A stretch of DNA of 64,000 nucleotides from a phage: the sequence record NC_100327.1; one strand, given 5' to 3'. This document shows positions 2,111 to 52,231 of the stretch, piece by piece. Each line of letters opens with the position of its first letter. The stretch's first letter is position 1. A program made the translations under genes and the position numbers. The notes under the pieces are model-generated. The model saw nothing but the letters and a program-made list of their open reading frames with translations, made no database searches and had not been told where the DNA came from.

Positions 2111-2607
2111 TTATTGCGCTCCTTGTAGTAGATATGACTCCCGAATTGAGCTGTCCTCTGCATCTTTTTTGCCCATTTCGGTCGTACTTTGGTTGTATGG
2201 TAGTGTGTTGCTCCACCTGTTATGTCCATAGCCATGTATGCAACATGGTTGTTATTATAGACCTTTAGAAGCATCTTTGCAAGACTTTTAGCGTGATCCC
2301 ATGAATCTTTTTCTGTCACCTTAAAAGTTTTGCCGTGGTTTGTCCACGAAAACTGGTTAGGTTGGTAGACAATCTTTCTTATAGTGTCTGGGTATTTGGG
2401 GTGAGATTTCCTGTTTAGTGTGGCAAACCCTGATGCCAGCATACCCATCGTGCCATCCCCTCTAGCCTCCCTGTAGATATTGCATGCCAGAATGTTTTCC
2501 TTAGTATCTGAGGGCTTGCAAGTATGATATACTTTTTGTTTTGGTGCTGCAACAACAGGCAGCGATAAAAGTGCGCTCAAAATAATAGCAAAGATCTTAA
2601 TTTTCAC
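2107..2607 (-). CDS. secreted cell-wall hydrolase, SleB/Hydrolase_2-like (candidate endolysin)
   Basis: 166 aa; N-terminal hydrophobic signal or SAR-like segment MKIKIFAIILSALLSLPVVAA; NIYREARGDG motif typical of SleB-type hydrolases; GTG start preceded by GGAG. Confidence 0.5.
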   Translation of the reverse strand: MKIKIFAIILSALLSLPVVAAPKQKVYHTCKPSDTKENILACNIYREARGDGTMGMLASGFATLNRKSHPKYPDTIRKIVYQPNQFSWTNHGKTFKVTEKDSWDHAKSLAKMLLKVYNNNHVAYMAMDITGGATHYHTTKVRPKWAKKMQRTAQFGSHIYYKERNK

Positions 2608-28978: not shown

Positions 28979-29049
28979 GTCACTCCTCCGGTATGAAAAT
29001 CTCTACAAGGTATTTTACCAAATTTTGTAACAATAGTCAATCTGAGCAT

Positions 29050-34491: not shown

Positions 34492-34552
34492 TGTGCCTCC
34501 GGGTTAAACAATCATGATAGTTATTTTACCAGATTTTGAGTTAATACGCAAT

Positions 34553-45470: not shown

Positions 45471-45496
45471 ATAAAATAAAGGGGGCCGGAGCCCCC
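45471..45496 (-). terminator. rho-independent terminator
   Basis: GGGGGC-UCCG-GCCCCC hairpin followed by UUUAUUUUAU on minus RNA, downstream of tape-measure stop. Confidence 0.55.
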
Positions 45497-45507
45497 TGCA
45501 CAGTTTA

Positions 45508-47844
45508 TTACCAAAGGTCGGTAGACATGAAGTTGATATCTTTATTGTTCTCCCACTCAAGTTTTGCATCAAATATTTTGTTAAACTCACCCTCATCTAT
45601 TGAAATCGTGATTTTCCCATCACTGATCTCTAAAGGTAGCATTTCCATAGTTCTTAATTGAGAAGCAAAACCAGGGCCACCCGGCAACGGAAGAGTCCCG
45701 CCCGGTAAGGTGTCCAAAGGATTAACAAACCCGTTACCTCCCGATATGATATCTTTGCGAATCATATCGCTGATAGTATCCAGCTGCTGATTTCTTTCAC
45801 TTAGTGGGTTGTAACGGTCATTAAATAATTCCCCGGCGCTTAGTATTGTACCGATAATGCCCAGCTTACCGAGCAGACCAACTTTGCCACCAGGTGTCTT
45901 GAGGCCACCTCCACCTTTTCCTGCCGGAGCTCCACCACCAGATCCTTCTGTAGTAGCGGCACCCGCTGCTCCAGCTGCACCTCTTAGAGAGTTAAGGAAT
46001 TTAAAGGTTTTTACAAGCATGGATGCCATGACAAAACCTTTTGTTAGGGCGTTGACTACCAGCATGATGGCAGCAGCAAACCCTGCCCATTTAGCATAGC
46101 TAAAGGTGTCATGAAGCTCTTCAGAATATTCCTTCGTCTTAGCTGTTATGAATCCCCATTTAATCCCCCATTCAAGGAAAAACATGCGGATCTTGACTAT
46201 AGTGTTGTTTAGTTCACCAACTACCCAGTTAAGGCCTCTCACAAACCCGCTAACAAAATCACCAGAGGCATCCCACACAAATTGCAGAGTCTCACCCGTG
46301 CGGATCAGTGTATAATAGAACTCTGTTAGTTCGTCAGACCAACGGGTGAACAGTTTCTGACGAGTCAGTTCGATGAAGGTTTTCAGTCTGTTTTCTGCCA
46401 GCACGTTAGACTTCTGCATTCTTTCATAACCAGCTGCAGATGCCTCGTTCATGTACTTAGCCACATACTTCATGATCTTGGCTGTTTTAACCTCACCTTT
46501 CTTCATCATGTCCATGAACTGATCCATGGAGAGTTCAGAAAGACCAAAAGCCTCTTTGGTGGCCTTGATAAAAGGTTCGTATGCACCAGGCAATGCTTCA
46601 GCAAGTTGTTGCTTCAGTTCTTCGGACATTACTTGTCCTTTCCCAAGCATCTGTTGGATTGCCATAATACCGCGCTGGTATTTTACCTCATCGGCACCAT
46701 AAGCAGCAGCATACTGTGAGTATGCAGAAAACAGCTCATGCACTTCCTGATTTGTCATCTGGTTTTTGGCGTTTACCGACATCTGGGCGTAACCTTGAAG
46801 ACCAGATTTGAGATCAAAACCAAGACGCATAGCCTCTTGCTGGACAAACGCAACCTCACTGTTGGCTTTGTTTGGATCTCCAGTAACAGCAGTAAGAGCA
46901 GCACTTGCCCCCTCCATCATGTGACCGGATCTGTTAACCGCAGCAAATCCAGAAAAAGCTGTATACGCAGCTGTTGCATTAATAACAGATCTACGTAAGT
47001 CTCTCATGGCATCGCCTAGTGTAAGCGTTTGGCTGGTGGCGCTTTTAAACCCAGACTGCAGCGCTGACAGGTGGGCGTTAAAGGTTGACTTCTTCATCTC
47101 CCCGCGAGCAAACCTGGACTCTAACTCTGAGTATCCTGGCAAGCTTCCACGGAATCCGGCCCCATACTTGGCAGAAAGTCTTATCGCGGAGTTGTAGAGG
47201 TGGGTTCTCCTTGCCTCACGATCCGACATAAGCCTATTATCCATACCAGCTTTACTGTCTCTTCTTAGCTGTCTATGATAACGATTCATAGCGGCTGTCT
47301 GAGCTTTCACAAGGTTAGGGTCGGAAGCTACACCACCCATATTAGGGTTACCGGGGATATATTTGAAAGCTTTGGCATTAGCCAGAACTCTTGCCTTAGG
47401 TGCCTTATAACCGCCGTAAGACACTGGTGCAGATTTGGCAGCCTTTTTGGCCTCTTTAGCTTGCTGCTGGTAGAACTTACGCATCCTAGCCATTTCTGGA
47501 TTTTTAGCGGTAAGATTACCTACAGCTTGTTTACGTCTCGCATTCTCCCTACGTTCTATTGCAGCCCTTACTGCAGCCTCTTTCTTGGCCTGTGCTACGC
47601 TCTCTCTGTGCAGTTTAGCATTTGCCTGAGATTGCTGTCTGGCAACCCTCTGCATTGTCTGCTGGGTTTTAACAGCTACCGCCTGCCATCTACTCATGGG
47701 GTTGGCTGAGTTAAAATCCTCGCCCAGTTTCCTGAACTCCCTCCCAATACTGCGAATTTTCTCTACAGCTTTTTTGTAGGAGGAGTTCTCTATCTCAAAG
47801 CCAATCTTGTTGACTGTTGTGGCAACTATTTTGTTTGTAGCCAT
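45508..47844 (-). CDS. tail tape measure protein
   Basis: 778 aa, helical Ala/Gln/Lys-rich N-terminal half, Gly-rich C-terminal region GAAGAATTEGSGGGAPAGKGGGG; follows tube-chaperone genes. Confidence 0.7.
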   Translation of the reverse strand: MATNKIVATTVNKIGFEIENSSYKKAVEKIRSIGREFRKLGEDFNSANPMSRWQAVAVKTQQTMQRVARQQSQANAKLHRESVAQAKKEAAVRAAIERRENARRKQAVGNLTAKNPEMARMRKFYQQQAKEAKKAAKSAPVSYGGYKAPKARVLANAKAFKYIPGNPNMGGVASDPNLVKAQTAAMNRYHRQLRRDSKAGMDNRLMSDREARRTHLYNSAIRLSAKYGAGFRGSLPGYSELESRFARGEMKKSTFNAHLSALQSGFKSATSQTLTLGDAMRDLRRSVINATAAYTAFSGFAAVNRSGHMMEGASAALTAVTGDPNKANSEVAFVQQEAMRLGFDLKSGLQGYAQMSVNAKNQMTNQEVHELFSAYSQYAAAYGADEVKYQRGIMAIQQMLGKGQVMSEELKQQLAEALPGAYEPFIKATKEAFGLSELSMDQFMDMMKKGEVKTAKIMKYVAKYMNEASAAGYERMQKSNVLAENRLKTFIELTRQKLFTRWSDELTEFYYTLIRTGETLQFVWDASGDFVSGFVRGLNWVVGELNNTIVKIRMFFLEWGIKWGFITAKTKEYSEELHDTFSYAKWAGFAAAIMLVVNALTKGFVMASMLVKTFKFLNSLRGAAGAAGAATTEGSGGGAPAGKGGGGLKTPGGKVGLLGKLGIIGTILSAGELFNDRYNPLSERNQQLDTISDMIRKDIISGGNGFVNPLDTLPGGTLPLPGGPGFASQLRTMEMLPLEISDGKITISIDEGEFNKIFDAKLEWENNKDINFMSTDLW

Positions 47845-47855
47845 GGTTTCCTCAT

Positions 47856-47893
47856 AATAAAAAGGGCCAGATCCCAGAAAAGGAATCCGGCCC
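47856..47893 (-). terminator. strong hairpin plus U-run immediately upstream of tape-measure RBS (attenuator-type terminator)
   Basis: 12-bp stem with G-U pairs only on the minus transcript, then CCCUUUUUAUUAUGAGGAAACC-AUG. Confidence 0.45.
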
Positions 47894-47898
47894 TTAGA

Positions 47899-48147
47899 TT
47901 ATCCTCTCCTGCGCTTAGCTTTCGCAGCAGCTGCGGCAGCCTTCTGCTCCCGCTCCATTTCCCTGTTTTGGACGGTATCTAGGAATTCTTCGATATCAAG
48001 ATACTCACAGAGCTTCAGGAAATACGCCATATCTGCAAGATTTAGCGATTCAAAATTTTCCCCTTTGAAATTCTTGAGCACCCTACACCAAAGAAAGTCG
48101 AACCAGTTGAGTGAACTGTTCTTGGCTGCCCACTCACTGGCCCTCAC
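47899..48147 (-). CDS. possible frameshift extension of tail assembly chaperone (gpT-like part) or separate small protein
   Basis: 82-aa ORF in -1 frame relative to chaperone, frame open across the chaperone stop; gene order tube-chaperone-extension-tape measure. Confidence 0.4.
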   Translation of the reverse strand: MRASEWAAKNSSLNWFDFLWCRVLKNFKGENFESLNLADMAYFLKLCEYLDIEEFLDTVQNREMEREQKAAAAAAKAKRRRG

Positions 48148-48158
48148 AACAACCTTGC

Positions 48159-48632
48159 TTATTCCTGCTCTTCCGGAGTCTGATCCAGGTTGTTCACCTG
48201 CTGAATCATACCCATCTGCTGTAACATCTCCAGAAGGCTTCCTAAACCGTCTTGTGTGAAAAAACAGCCGTAGTTAACCTCCAGAACCTTACCTGCCAGC
48301 TTAATCATCTCCAGCAGATGCCCTGCAAACACAACATCTGGGTTAAGCTTATCCACACCATCTACGGTAATATCTTCGAACAAGATTTTAAATAACTCTT
48401 CAATAGAGCTATCATCAAGTTCTTGGAACAGGTAAGCCAGAGCAGTAGGAAGGACCTCTGCCATATTCTGACCACCAGAGATAATAGATCCACCGATAGC
48501 ACCTAGCGGGACAGCCACAATCTTACCGATTTTAGGCATGTTTTTCATTGCTTTCATCGGTCCCCAGTGGGTGATCACAAAGTTGTGCCCTGCTAAATCA
48601 ATCTCTGTTGTAGGTCTAAAGTTTATAGCCAT
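48159..48632 (-). CDS. tail assembly chaperone (gpG-like)
   Basis: 157 aa, acidic C-terminus, between tube and tape-measure genes. Confidence 0.5.
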   Translation of the reverse strand: MAINFRPTTEIDLAGHNFVITHWGPMKAMKNMPKIGKIVAVPLGAIGGSIISGGQNMAEVLPTALAYLFQELDDSSIEELFKILFEDITVDGVDKLNPDVVFAGHLLEMIKLAGKVLEVNYGCFFTQDGLGSLLEMLQQMGMIQQVNNLDQTPEEQE

Positions 48633-48744
48633 TTTATAGCATCCTTATTAGTCATGTTGTGCACCATATTTGTGTATTTTACCATGATTATGGTGCATTG
48701 TCAATTTAACCTTTCAAGCAATTCAAGAACGTGTGTCAAAACCA

Positions 48745-48776
48745 TAAAAGCAAAAAGCCCCACCCGAAGGTGAGGC
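48745..48776 (-). terminator. rho-independent terminator after tube gene
   Basis: GCCUCACC-UUCG-GGUGGGGC hairpin followed by UUUUUGCUUUUAU on minus RNA. Confidence 0.55.
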
Positions 48777-48794
48777 TTATGCTAAAGTGTGCCC

Positions 48795-49268
48795 TTAGAT
48801 AATACCTGCAAGACCTGCGAGGCCAGTAAGAGCACCAGTGATGTTATCACGGTTGAGCCATGCATCCAGAATACCGATATCCCAGTCCAGCTGACCTACT
48901 TCGGTTCCGTAAGTCAGGTCAGGCTGTTTCTGGATCCAACCAATTGTGGAAATACCAGGACCCTGGCTACCTTCCAGCAGAACTGGGAAGAATACCAGAC
49001 CAGTAATCGATGCCTGTTTCTGCCAGTCAGAAAGGTAAGCGTTCCATACAGAAGTGTTCTGCAAAGATACAGTCATAACACCAGATTGGTTACGAGACAG
49101 GGCCGCAGACATTTCGCCATCCACACCGACGTGAGGGTAGATGTTGTCTTCGTTTCTTGAAACAACGATCTTGGTGTCAGCAGCGAAGCCAGTGACACGC
49201 TGCTGCATCAGGTACAGTTTGACCTTTTTAGGGTCATACGCATAAGGAGTTAAAATTTGAGTTTCCAT
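48795..49268 (-). CDS. tail tube protein
   Basis: 157 aa directly downstream of the putative sheath gene. Confidence 0.5.
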   Translation of the reverse strand: METQILTPYAYDPKKVKLYLMQQRVTGFAADTKIVVSRNEDNIYPHVGVDGEMSAALSRNQSGVMTVSLQNTSVWNAYLSDWQKQASITGLVFFPVLLEGSQGPGISTIGWIQKQPDLTYGTEVGQLDWDIGILDAWLNRDNITGALTGLAGLAGII

Positions 49269-49278
49269 CTAGTCTTCC

Positions 49279-50655
49279 TTATTCAGTCATTGCAACAGCA
49301 TTGGTGGATTTAGAACCAACTTTGTCCAGAAGAACGTTGATCCGGATACGAACGAAGTGCAGGGCGTTGTTATACACCAGTTCCACTTTCACACCTTCCA
49401 GAACACGAGCAGCCAACTGATTGGTTGGGATTTCTGCACGTTTAGGAACTGTGATGATCGGGTCGTAGAATACATTATTGTCTTCGTCGAAACCTGTCAG
49501 GATCGCACCATTCTTAATGCCAGTGTTGATTGGGTTGTTCATCAGGACAGACTTGATAACCGGAAGATCATCATCAGACATCTTCATGCTTAAACCCATG
49601 TTGGAGCGACGATGCATGTACCCAAACATAGATTCTTCAGATCTGAACTTGATCCAGTGTGCAAAACGAATAGCGTCTGCATACTGACCTGAAGCACACT
49701 TACCTTCCCAGAAAGCGCCAACACCGTTAATCATTCTGTAGAAGTTAACGTGGTTTTCCCAAATAGCCATACGCTGAGTTAAAGTCAGAGACGGTGCAAT
49801 CACACCTGGCATCTGTTTTAAGTGCAAGCTGTCGCCGTAAGACGGATCGTTGGATGCCATAGCACCTATGATACCACCCTCCGGGAAGTCCTTATCTGCG
49901 CGAGGATCGTACATGCCGACACTGTCATATTGTGCAGCTTTCAGTTTGGTGGCGATGTTATTATCTTTACCAGTCACATCTTCTGCAGTAGAGTAGACGT
50001 GCAGCTTGTAGTTGGCCTGAGCCCACTTAGCACATGCTTCAATGTCGGTGTGGTCTTCATGGCACAGGAAGTACCAATTGTCCCGCTCAGCATTGATCTT
50101 ATCAACTACTGTAGAAGGTTTTTCAGCATTGGCGATATTTTTAATTGTATAGTTACCAGTATGATAACCTACAGTGCAGTCACCAGTGATGGTGATAACA
50201 CCGTCTTCAGCCGCTACAGTGATATCGTCCAAGTTATCATCTGCTTCGATTTTAGTCTTCATGGACTCTGCGATCTGAGTTGCAGCTGTCCCACCAGAGA
50301 TAGGAACTATCAAAGAGGTATTGTAGCCACCTTTTGCAATAGTCATTACTACATCGGTATCAGCTGCGGCAGCAATACCTTTAAAATCTACAGTGGTTTT
50401 TTCTTTGGCCTGTCTGCCGATCATAACATATTGTGGAGGGAATACACCACCAAAAGCTTTTGCTGCAAACTCATACGCTGCAGAGCCTTGTGCGAAACCA
50501 TCTTCCACCATCTGATCCAGCTCCGCATATACGCGAGCTCGCTCAGTAAAGTTGTTGTGGATAGCGATGAACAGGGGAGTTTCGAAACCTACAGTGTCAA
50601 TAGGTTGGGTTCCGAGGTTAACTGTAACATCTACCACTTTATCTAAATATGGCAT
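49279..50655 (-). CDS. tail sheath protein (putative)
   Basis: 458 aa, positioned sheath-tube-chaperone-tape measure as in contractile-tail phages. Confidence 0.5.
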   Translation of the reverse strand: MPYLDKVVDVTVNLGTQPIDTVGFETPLFIAIHNNFTERARVYAELDQMVEDGFAQGSAAYEFAAKAFGGVFPPQYVMIGRQAKEKTTVDFKGIAAAADTDVVMTIAKGGYNTSLIVPISGGTAATQIAESMKTKIEADDNLDDITVAAEDGVITITGDCTVGYHTGNYTIKNIANAEKPSTVVDKINAERDNWYFLCHEDHTDIEACAKWAQANYKLHVYSTAEDVTGKDNNIATKLKAAQYDSVGMYDPRADKDFPEGGIIGAMASNDPSYGDSLHLKQMPGVIAPSLTLTQRMAIWENHVNFYRMINGVGAFWEGKCASGQYADAIRFAHWIKFRSEESMFGYMHRRSNMGLSMKMSDDDLPVIKSVLMNNPINTGIKNGAILTGFDEDNNVFYDPIITVPKRAEIPTNQLAARVLEGVKVELVYNNALHFVRIRINVLLDKVGSKSTNAVAMTE

Positions 50656-52190: not shown

Positions 52191-52231
52191 TAATGTATTT
52201 TACCACAAAGATACATCAAAAGCAACAATTT

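Follow-up and report, generated by a model that had tools for sequence, protein, structure and literature searches.

Organization of the tail chaperone locus

The stretch of phage DNA analysed here (sequence record NC_100327.1; 64,000 nucleotides, referred to below as the window) carries a tail assembly chaperone gene, a short open reading frame (ORF) that follows it in the −1 frame and, directly in front of the tape-measure gene, a terminator-like hairpin. The window belongs to an rV5-type (Vequintavirus) Escherichia coli myophage. Across the 5.3 kb around the chaperone locus, identity is 99.2% with Escherichia phage Murica and 95% or higher with over 100 further Vequintavirus (rV5-like) myophages, and the gene coordinates in record LR694165.1 (rV5_ev156) match those of the window. 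All genes at the locus lie on the minus strand, as do the features described below, in the order sheath (50655..49279; DUF3383, phrog_205), tube (49268..48795; KPP10_Orf10, phrog_280), chaperone, −1 ORF and tape measure. This order places the chaperone and its putative extension between the tube and tape-measure genes, as an earlier note on this DNA had proposed.

The chaperone gene (48159..48632) encodes a protein of 157 amino acids (aa), the short, G-like form (TAC-N), which matches Pfam Phage_TAC_15 (E = 3.3e-23; 83 bits for a cut-off of 22) and phrog_3840 (E = 6.5e-69). It is followed by an 82-aa ORF with a GTG start (47899..48147), labelled ‘hypothetical protein’ in databases and matching phrog_10409, a family of unknown function. 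The hairpin and its U-run occupy 47854..47895. Immediately beyond them the tape-measure ribosome-binding site (RBS) GAGGA (47849..47853), evident in the sequence and annotated as such in phage Murica, stands 5 nt 5′ of the ATG at 47844 that opens the 778-aa tape measure protein gene (45508..47844; Pfam TMP_3, E = 1.5e-18; phrog_5255).

A slippery heptamer in the open −1 frame

Relative to the chaperone gene (48632..48159), the 82-aa ORF (48147..47899) occupies the −1 frame, which stays open across the chaperone stop codon; the earlier note had claimed both. No stop interrupts the −1 frame between 48273 and the stop codon at 47901..47899, a run of 124 codons, 38 of them shared with the chaperone gene. 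For comparison, the −1 frame of the 42 long same-strand coding stretches of the window has 1603 runs without a stop, with a mean length of 9 codons and a maximum of 69. A search of the overlap for a slippery heptamer, which the note had suggested as a check, found T_TTT_TTC in phase at 48264..48258 (zero-frame TGT TTT TTC, encoding Cys123-Phe124-Phe125). The heptamer begins three codons inside the open −1 zone. In-frame TTTTTTC is present nowhere else in the long coding stretches of the window, so that this is the sole copy among 16,790 codons, and the chance expectation for sites of the form X_XXY_YYZ in the 38-codon overlap is 0.10.

We compared the locus in 15 annotated phages and 33 IMG/VR contigs, in which chaperone identity is as low as 28%. 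They cover Vequintavirus, Seunavirus, Henunavirus, Avunavirus, Certrevirus, Phapecoctavirus, Justusliebigvirus, Plateaulakevirus and Barbavirus. In 46 of 46 loci the −1 frame stays open for 68–98 codons beyond the chaperone stop, the lower figure coming from a contig (L029) truncated by its own end, and the +1 frame for just 3–20 codons. T_TTT_TTC lies within the overlap in 45 of the 46, a count from which motif frequency cannot be inferred because the IMG/VR scan was seeded with the Phe-Phe protein motif. Codon choice is unbiased by this seeding, and the codons are NNT TTT TTC in all 37 distinct genes with the Phe-Phe motif (TGT in 25, CCT in 11 and AGT in one). Elsewhere in those genes Phe is encoded by TTC 139 times and by TTT 114 times, Cys by TGC 8 times and by TGT 6 times, and CCT accounts for 77 of 204 Pro codons. 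The share of same-residue codon pairs that differ synonymously is ∼0.52 upstream and 0.34 across the whole overlap, and in three 10-codon windows around the heptamer it is 0.22, 0.11 and 0.27. The single exception to T_TTT_TTC is Rheinheimera phage Barba5A (locus L013), in which Cys-Leu-Thr replaces Cys-Phe-Phe and the lambda heptamer G_GGA_AAG (L013 1830..1836) is found a few codons 3′, within the open zone. Barba5A is thus a documented natural switch to a lambda-type heptamer.

These data strongly support the programmed −1 frameshift that the earlier note had regarded as possible, with a slip at T_TTT_TTC by which the chaperone gene would make a longer second protein. The predicted fusion, join(48632..48258, 48258..47899) on the minus strand, would consist of 125 chaperone residues and 119 residues read in the −1 frame, 244 aa in total. 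The extension (47899..48258, stop codon included) was identified from the open frame and matches phrog_10409 (E = 1.9e-51) over its last 82 aa. The tryptic peptide predicted across the fusion junction is VLEVNYGCFFHTR, and the predicted T-domain peptides encoded 5′ of GTG 48147 include KPSGDVTADGYDSAGEQPGSDSGR and AGISK.

The downstream ORF as a probable C-terminal domain

To examine the extension we aligned the −1 translations with all ATG, GTG and TTG codons marked. Conservation of the T-like domain (ISKVV-RA--YA-KNSSL-WFDYLWCR...) starts at the chaperone stop codon, and in front of the domain the overlap encodes a linker rich in Gly, Ser, Asp and Pro. No ATG, GTG or TTG occurs 5′ of the conserved core of the domain in about 19 of the 27 representative sequences. 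The start codon of the T ORF is therefore not conserved and its annotated start varies between records: annotated T ORFs in relatives run from 43 to 88 codons, and gene callers yield stand-alone T fragments of 43–102 aa in a collection of 1.84 billion representative proteins. Two records proved to hold annotation artefacts, namely ORF58 of Salmonella phage PVP-SE1, which begins with ATT (L003, 1986), and an apparent disruption of the T ORF into two tiny ORFs in phage NHEP1 (L049, 1196..1434), where the −1 frame is intact. In Barba5A the T ORF and the tape-measure gene are separated by the insertion of a reverse-strand gene for a ‘putative DNA binding protein’ (L013 2132..2770).

A joined coding sequence is annotated in none of the GenBank phage records examined at the locus. 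There is no single-ORF fusion among 73 fusion homologues, all of them 149–159 aa long, and no fusion of ∼240 aa among 21 T-domain matches in the same 1.84 billion representative proteins, where the long proteins that did match share short repeated stretches at ∼30% identity. With no single-frame fusion in any relative, the arrangement of two products in two frames has always been kept, as expected if both forms are needed. Taken together, the comparisons suggest that the 82-aa ORF is the C-terminal part of a frameshift product and not a gene of its own. In Pfam, NCBIfam and PDB sequence searches the T-like domain had no homologue, and it matched PHROGs of unknown function only. T domains of different phages are generally dissimilar in sequence, and the missing homology to a known T domain therefore weighs little. 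A single-sequence AlphaFold model of the extension (predicted local distance difference test score of 53.6) had a disordered linker (residues 1–35) and four helices, and was too poor to be usable in a fold search.

We also noted a large set of chaperones at 71–75% identity (P0005–P0045), all of 154 aa save one of 149, on contigs of 120–147 kb in Logan and ENA assemblies. The set points to a sister group of Vequintavirus that would have no counterpart among the GenBank phage records listed.

A conserved hairpin before the tape-measure gene

The earlier note had also described a 12-bp hairpin with a U-run just upstream of the tape-measure RBS, and this was borne out. Its core pairs 47893..47882 with 47875..47864 and extends to 14 bp (47895..47862), with 8 G-C pairs, two G-U pairs and a 6-nt loop, followed by UUUUUAUUAU. 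On the sense RNA the hairpin folds with −27.6 kcal/mol (z = −4.8), which 0 of 200 shuffles equalled. The note’s further statement that it is stable only on the minus-strand transcript was overstated, since the opposite strand also folds (−18.5 kcal/mol), although with internal mismatches and no U-run; what stands is that the hairpin is clearly more stable on the sense transcript and terminator-like only there. The −1 stop codon at 47901..47899 is 3–5 nt from the foot of the stem, a distance of 0–6 nt in most Vequintavirinae. In one contig (L034, ∼2235..2265) the −1 stop lies 27 nt 5′ of the ancestral stop and ∼31 nt from the terminator stem, compared with ∼4 nt in its close relatives.

This hairpin already has a history as a predicted terminator. 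Table S4 of Kropinski et al. (2013; PMC3606486) lists it in phage rV5 as t050, GGGCCGGATTCCTTTTCTGGGATCTGGCCCTTTTTATTAT, which is identical to 47893..47854 of the window, and the annotation of phage Murica labels all three hairpins of the locus as terminators. The comparative support for it is new. Pairing is kept in 134 of 134 cells across 12 distinct sequences from five genera, with 4 pairs changed on both sides; none of 500 shuffles reached the covariation score, and slid registers fall to 25–65% paired. Several positions alternate between A-U and G-U, so that pairing is kept on the sense RNA only, indicating that the structure is selected there. Plateaulakevirus-like and other distant loci have an unrelated hairpin plus U-run at the same place.

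The chaperone and tape-measure genes as a probable transcription unit

Upstream of the chaperone gene is a sigma-70-like promoter (48676..48704; TTGACA-17 nt-TAAAAT with a TG extension), which has 11 of 12 consensus matches and is the best in the region. Its sequence (48704..48676) is identical to that of rV5 promoter P051, which Table S4 of PMC3606486 places under both sigma-70-like and late promoters. The same table lists the hairpins that close the genes on either side, t052 after the tube gene (48755..48778) and t049 after the tape-measure gene (45480..45497); both hairpins are present in the window. The hairpin after the tube gene is kept in relatives, 12 of 13 lineages compared having a hairpin and U-run there. 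Vequintavirinae relatives have a CATGG(A/T)TA-like element 5′ of the chaperone gene, and the unit of promoter, chaperone, hairpin and tape measure thus seems to be conserved. In Stephanstirmvirinae the chaperone RBS directly follows the tube terminator, so that terminator read-through is unavoidable there too.

P051 is found in Vequintavirus only, as is the perfect 9-bp inverted repeat, TGCACCATA ... TATGGTGCA (48661..48704), in which it lies; other genera have a shorter spacer and the CATGG(A/T)TA-like element. With the −10 element and the likely start site enclosed between its arms, the repeat looks like an operator.

We then asked where transcripts of the tape-measure gene could begin. Between the U-run and the tape-measure ATG there are ∼17 nt, which include the RBS, and no sigma-70-like site was found downstream of the hairpin before this ATG. 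The rV5 late motif TGGTAAAATA, which is the −10 region of P051, has 19 matches with at most one mismatch in the window (5.7 expected), 18 of them on the coding (minus) strand. Exact copies are at 29011..29020, 34522..34531, 48675..48684 and 52196..52205, and at up to one mismatch there is no copy between 48675 and 47845. On these grounds a separate tape-measure promoter was rejected. The tape measure protein of rV5 is gp49, which was detected in the virion (PMC3606486), and in the related phage phiTE the protein is present in six-fold and three-fold form (PMC11972413). With no promoter after the hairpin and a tape measure protein that reaches the virion, transcripts must pass the hairpin, and termination at it can be only partial. 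The hairpin is thus a probable leaky terminator, or attenuator, of the tape-measure gene, the role that the earlier note had suggested and one consistent with these data.

In the Certrevirus-like loci L008–L010, L026, L028 and L030, a −10-like element (TATAAT, TAATAT or TAGAAT) is found just 3′ of the terminator, and the unit may be re-initiated there. The start codon that comes next in L026, L028 and L030 seems to be that of a different small ORF rather than that of the tape measure.

A proposed mechanism and its alternatives

We consider it likely that this is a G/GT-type chaperone locus forming a small transcription unit of its own, which combines a −1 slip with a leaky terminator. P051 would drive the unit, followed in order by the chaperone, the −1 extension, the leaky terminator and the tape measure. 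Most ribosomes would terminate at 48159, yielding the 157-aa chaperone. A minority would move one base back on T_TTT_TTC, the two Phe-tRNAs re-pairing from UUU-UUC to UUU-UUU, and would continue in the −1 frame to 47899 to give the 244-aa protein, in which the first 125 chaperone residues would be joined through a flexible Gly/Ser/Asp linker to a helical T-like domain of ∼85 aa. By analogy with gpG and gpGT of phage lambda, the short form would coat the tape measure protein and the rare long form would additionally recruit tube subunits, neither form being found in the virion. We infer the slip itself, its rate and the roles of the two forms from the arrangement of the locus and from this analogy. 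The hairpin and U-run, 3–5 nt after the −1 stop and ∼10 nt before the tape-measure RBS, would then terminate part of the transcripts. Such partial termination, which we infer, would provide a stable 3′ end for the chaperone mRNA and keep tape-measure mRNA below chaperone mRNA, with few copies of the tape measure protein needed per tail.

GenBank records annotate the 82-aa ORF as an independent gene. If its translation began at the GTG (48147), both its −1 phase and the presence of the heptamer would be incidental. The weak AAGG 5 nt before the GTG and the stand-alone 43–102-aa proteins produced by gene callers agree with such a gene, which is nonetheless highly improbable: the start codon is not conserved, most lineages being without one 5′ of the conserved N-terminal part, all 46 loci keep the −1 phase, all 37 distinct genes have a synonymously invariant heptamer, and the frame is open exactly from just 5′ of the heptamer. 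The invariant six-T run would also suit slippage by RNA polymerase instead of the ribosome, an extra U inserted in the run being enough to put ribosomes in the −1 frame. However, six residues are short for efficient slippage by bacterial RNA polymerase, which we counted against this explanation, and the run is always phased as X_XXY_YYZ. Moreover, G_GGA_AAG in Barba5A is without a homopolymer run and would be workable only as a tandem ribosomal slip, and its presence in place of T6 suggests that the mechanism conserved among these phages is slipping by the ribosome. Although polymerase slippage on homopolymer runs is documented (PMC5009743), there is very little chance that it generates the −1 product here.

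Different roles can also be envisaged for the hairpin. It might be an element of mRNA stability or processing, or else a full terminator followed by an unrecognised phage-specific tape-measure promoter. Termination at the hairpin is only a prediction, late promoters of rV5-type phages are poorly defined and the Certrevirus relatives have their −10-like element 3′ of the hairpin. Against this, the interval of ∼17 nt between U-run and ATG is occupied by the RBS, the late motif is missing from the whole region between P051 and the tape-measure gene, and a covarying canonical stem with a U-run has the look of an intrinsic terminator; we therefore regard a role other than attenuation as unlikely. 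Another conceivable arrangement couples the two signals. A ribosome paused at the −1 stop, so close to the stem, would mask its 5′ arm and allow read-through into the tape-measure gene. Only frameshifted ribosomes would reach 47901..47899, so that read-through would occur mainly when the leading ribosome had slipped, and unslipped ribosomes, terminating 260 nt before that point, would leave the stem free to form. If true, such coupling would make synthesis of the tape measure protein depend on how often ribosomes shift frame, and so on the supply of its partner, the long chaperone form. Stop codons near terminators are common, however, and we judge frameshift-coupled attenuation improbable.

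Several observations weigh against our preferred reading of a −1 slip combined with a leaky terminator. The downstream structure that the earlier note had named as something to look for was not found near the heptamer. In four phage lineages the 43–98 nt 3′ of it folded no more stably than shuffled versions (z = −1.4 to +2.0), and folding 12 sequences as an alignment gave 4 weak pairs without covariation; a stimulatory hairpin or pseudoknot at this position was rejected on both grounds. An Rfam scan of 47500..49000 returned sub-threshold chance matches only. Upstream, a Shine-Dalgarno-like GGAGG (48278..48282) lies 13 nt 5′ of the heptamer, a distance within the span over which internal Shine-Dalgarno sequences promote −1 frameshifting in dnaX. 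GGAGG, GGAG or GAGG is present 5′ of the heptamer in about two thirds of related lineages and possibly stimulates the slip. The motif is missing, however, in Certrevirus and some Klebsiella phages and is dictated by Leu-Glu-Val/Ile codons. The conservation of nucleotides near the heptamer is partly expected from dual coding, the weak AAGG occurs 5 nt 5′ of GTG 48147 in this genus so that some independent initiation may take place, and the frameshift product itself is known as a prediction from sequence alone. As for the hairpin, it looks like a strong terminator, only one other in the rV5 list being more stable, and Stephanstirmvirinae relatives are without it, from which it follows that it is not indispensable to the module.

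Relation to known chaperone frameshifts

In phage lambda gpG and gpGT are made in a ratio of ∼30:1, the G part binds the tape measure and the T part the tail tube protein, and neither product is found in the virion (PMC5009743). The locus described here resembles the lambda system, where the −1 shift takes place at G_GGA_AAG (Levin 1993; Xu 2004), in its position between the tube and tape-measure genes, in a −1 downstream ORF that overlaps the 3′ end, in an X_XXY_YYZ heptamer within the overlap and in products that would be missing from virions. Lambda needs no elaborate stimulatory structure, and none was found downstream of the heptamer here. The rV5 virion proteins detected include gp49, gp52 and gp53, and ‘gp50’ and ‘gp51’ do not appear in the main text (PMC3606486), a pattern that is consistent with the lambda picture, though not decisive. 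In contrast to lambda, the phage of the window is contractile-tailed and has the heptamer T_TTT_TTC, the lambda heptamer being that of its relative Barba5A. The shift would also take place 34 codons before the chaperone stop, so that the two forms would further differ by a C-terminal tail of 32 residues, and the chaperone is of Pfam family Phage_TAC_15 with a T-like domain that belongs to no Pfam or NCBIfam family. Phage P2, a myophage reported by Christie in 2002 to make gpE and gpE+E′ through a −1 frameshift on a T-rich heptamer, shares with our locus the contractile tail, a T-run slippery site and the position between tube and tape-measure genes. Pfam and PHROG family searches detected no sequence relationship to the P2 chaperones.

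In December 2025 a −1 frameshift producing TAC-N and TAC-NC was proposed for Vandenendeviridae (Pseudomonas phage Adele, Pakpunavirus) and Andersonviridae, families described as relatives of Vequintavirinae, with an invariant GTTTTT motif near the 3′ end of TAC-N (PMC12846349). As described there, these families are like the window in being myophages, in having a ‘hypothetical protein’ that is the C-terminal domain of the long form and in the argument from a conserved open −1 frame; the motif GTTTTT compares with TG TTT TTT C in the window. The chaperone locus of Vequintavirinae, Stephanstirmvirinae and Plateaulakevirus was outside that analysis, in which a terminator is not mentioned. The rV5 paper that predicted P051, t050, t052 and t049 neither discusses consequences for tape-measure expression nor mentions a frameshift (PMC3606486). 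A frameshift is likewise unmentioned in the phiTE and CB7 papers, and a full-text literature search found no report of one for rV5-like phages or Vequintavirinae.

The frameshift is a further case of a well-known type and the hairpin an already predicted terminator; both features are ordinary for phages, and the current understanding of phage tail assembly is unchanged by them. For the phages concerned, our analysis adds Vequintavirinae, Stephanstirmvirinae and Plateaulakevirus-like phages to the Pakpunavirus-like and Moogle-like phages for which a conserved T-run frameshift was recently proposed. More than 100 deposited Vequintavirus genomes, together with those of related subfamilies, appear to mis-annotate the C-terminal domain of a chaperone as a separate hypothetical protein with arbitrary starts, where the correct feature would be the joined minus-strand coding sequence given above. 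In conclusion, the proposed unit, in which one promoter serves the chaperone and, past a leaky terminator, the tape measure, offers a simple and testable account of how these phages could set the proportions of tube, chaperone and tape measure.

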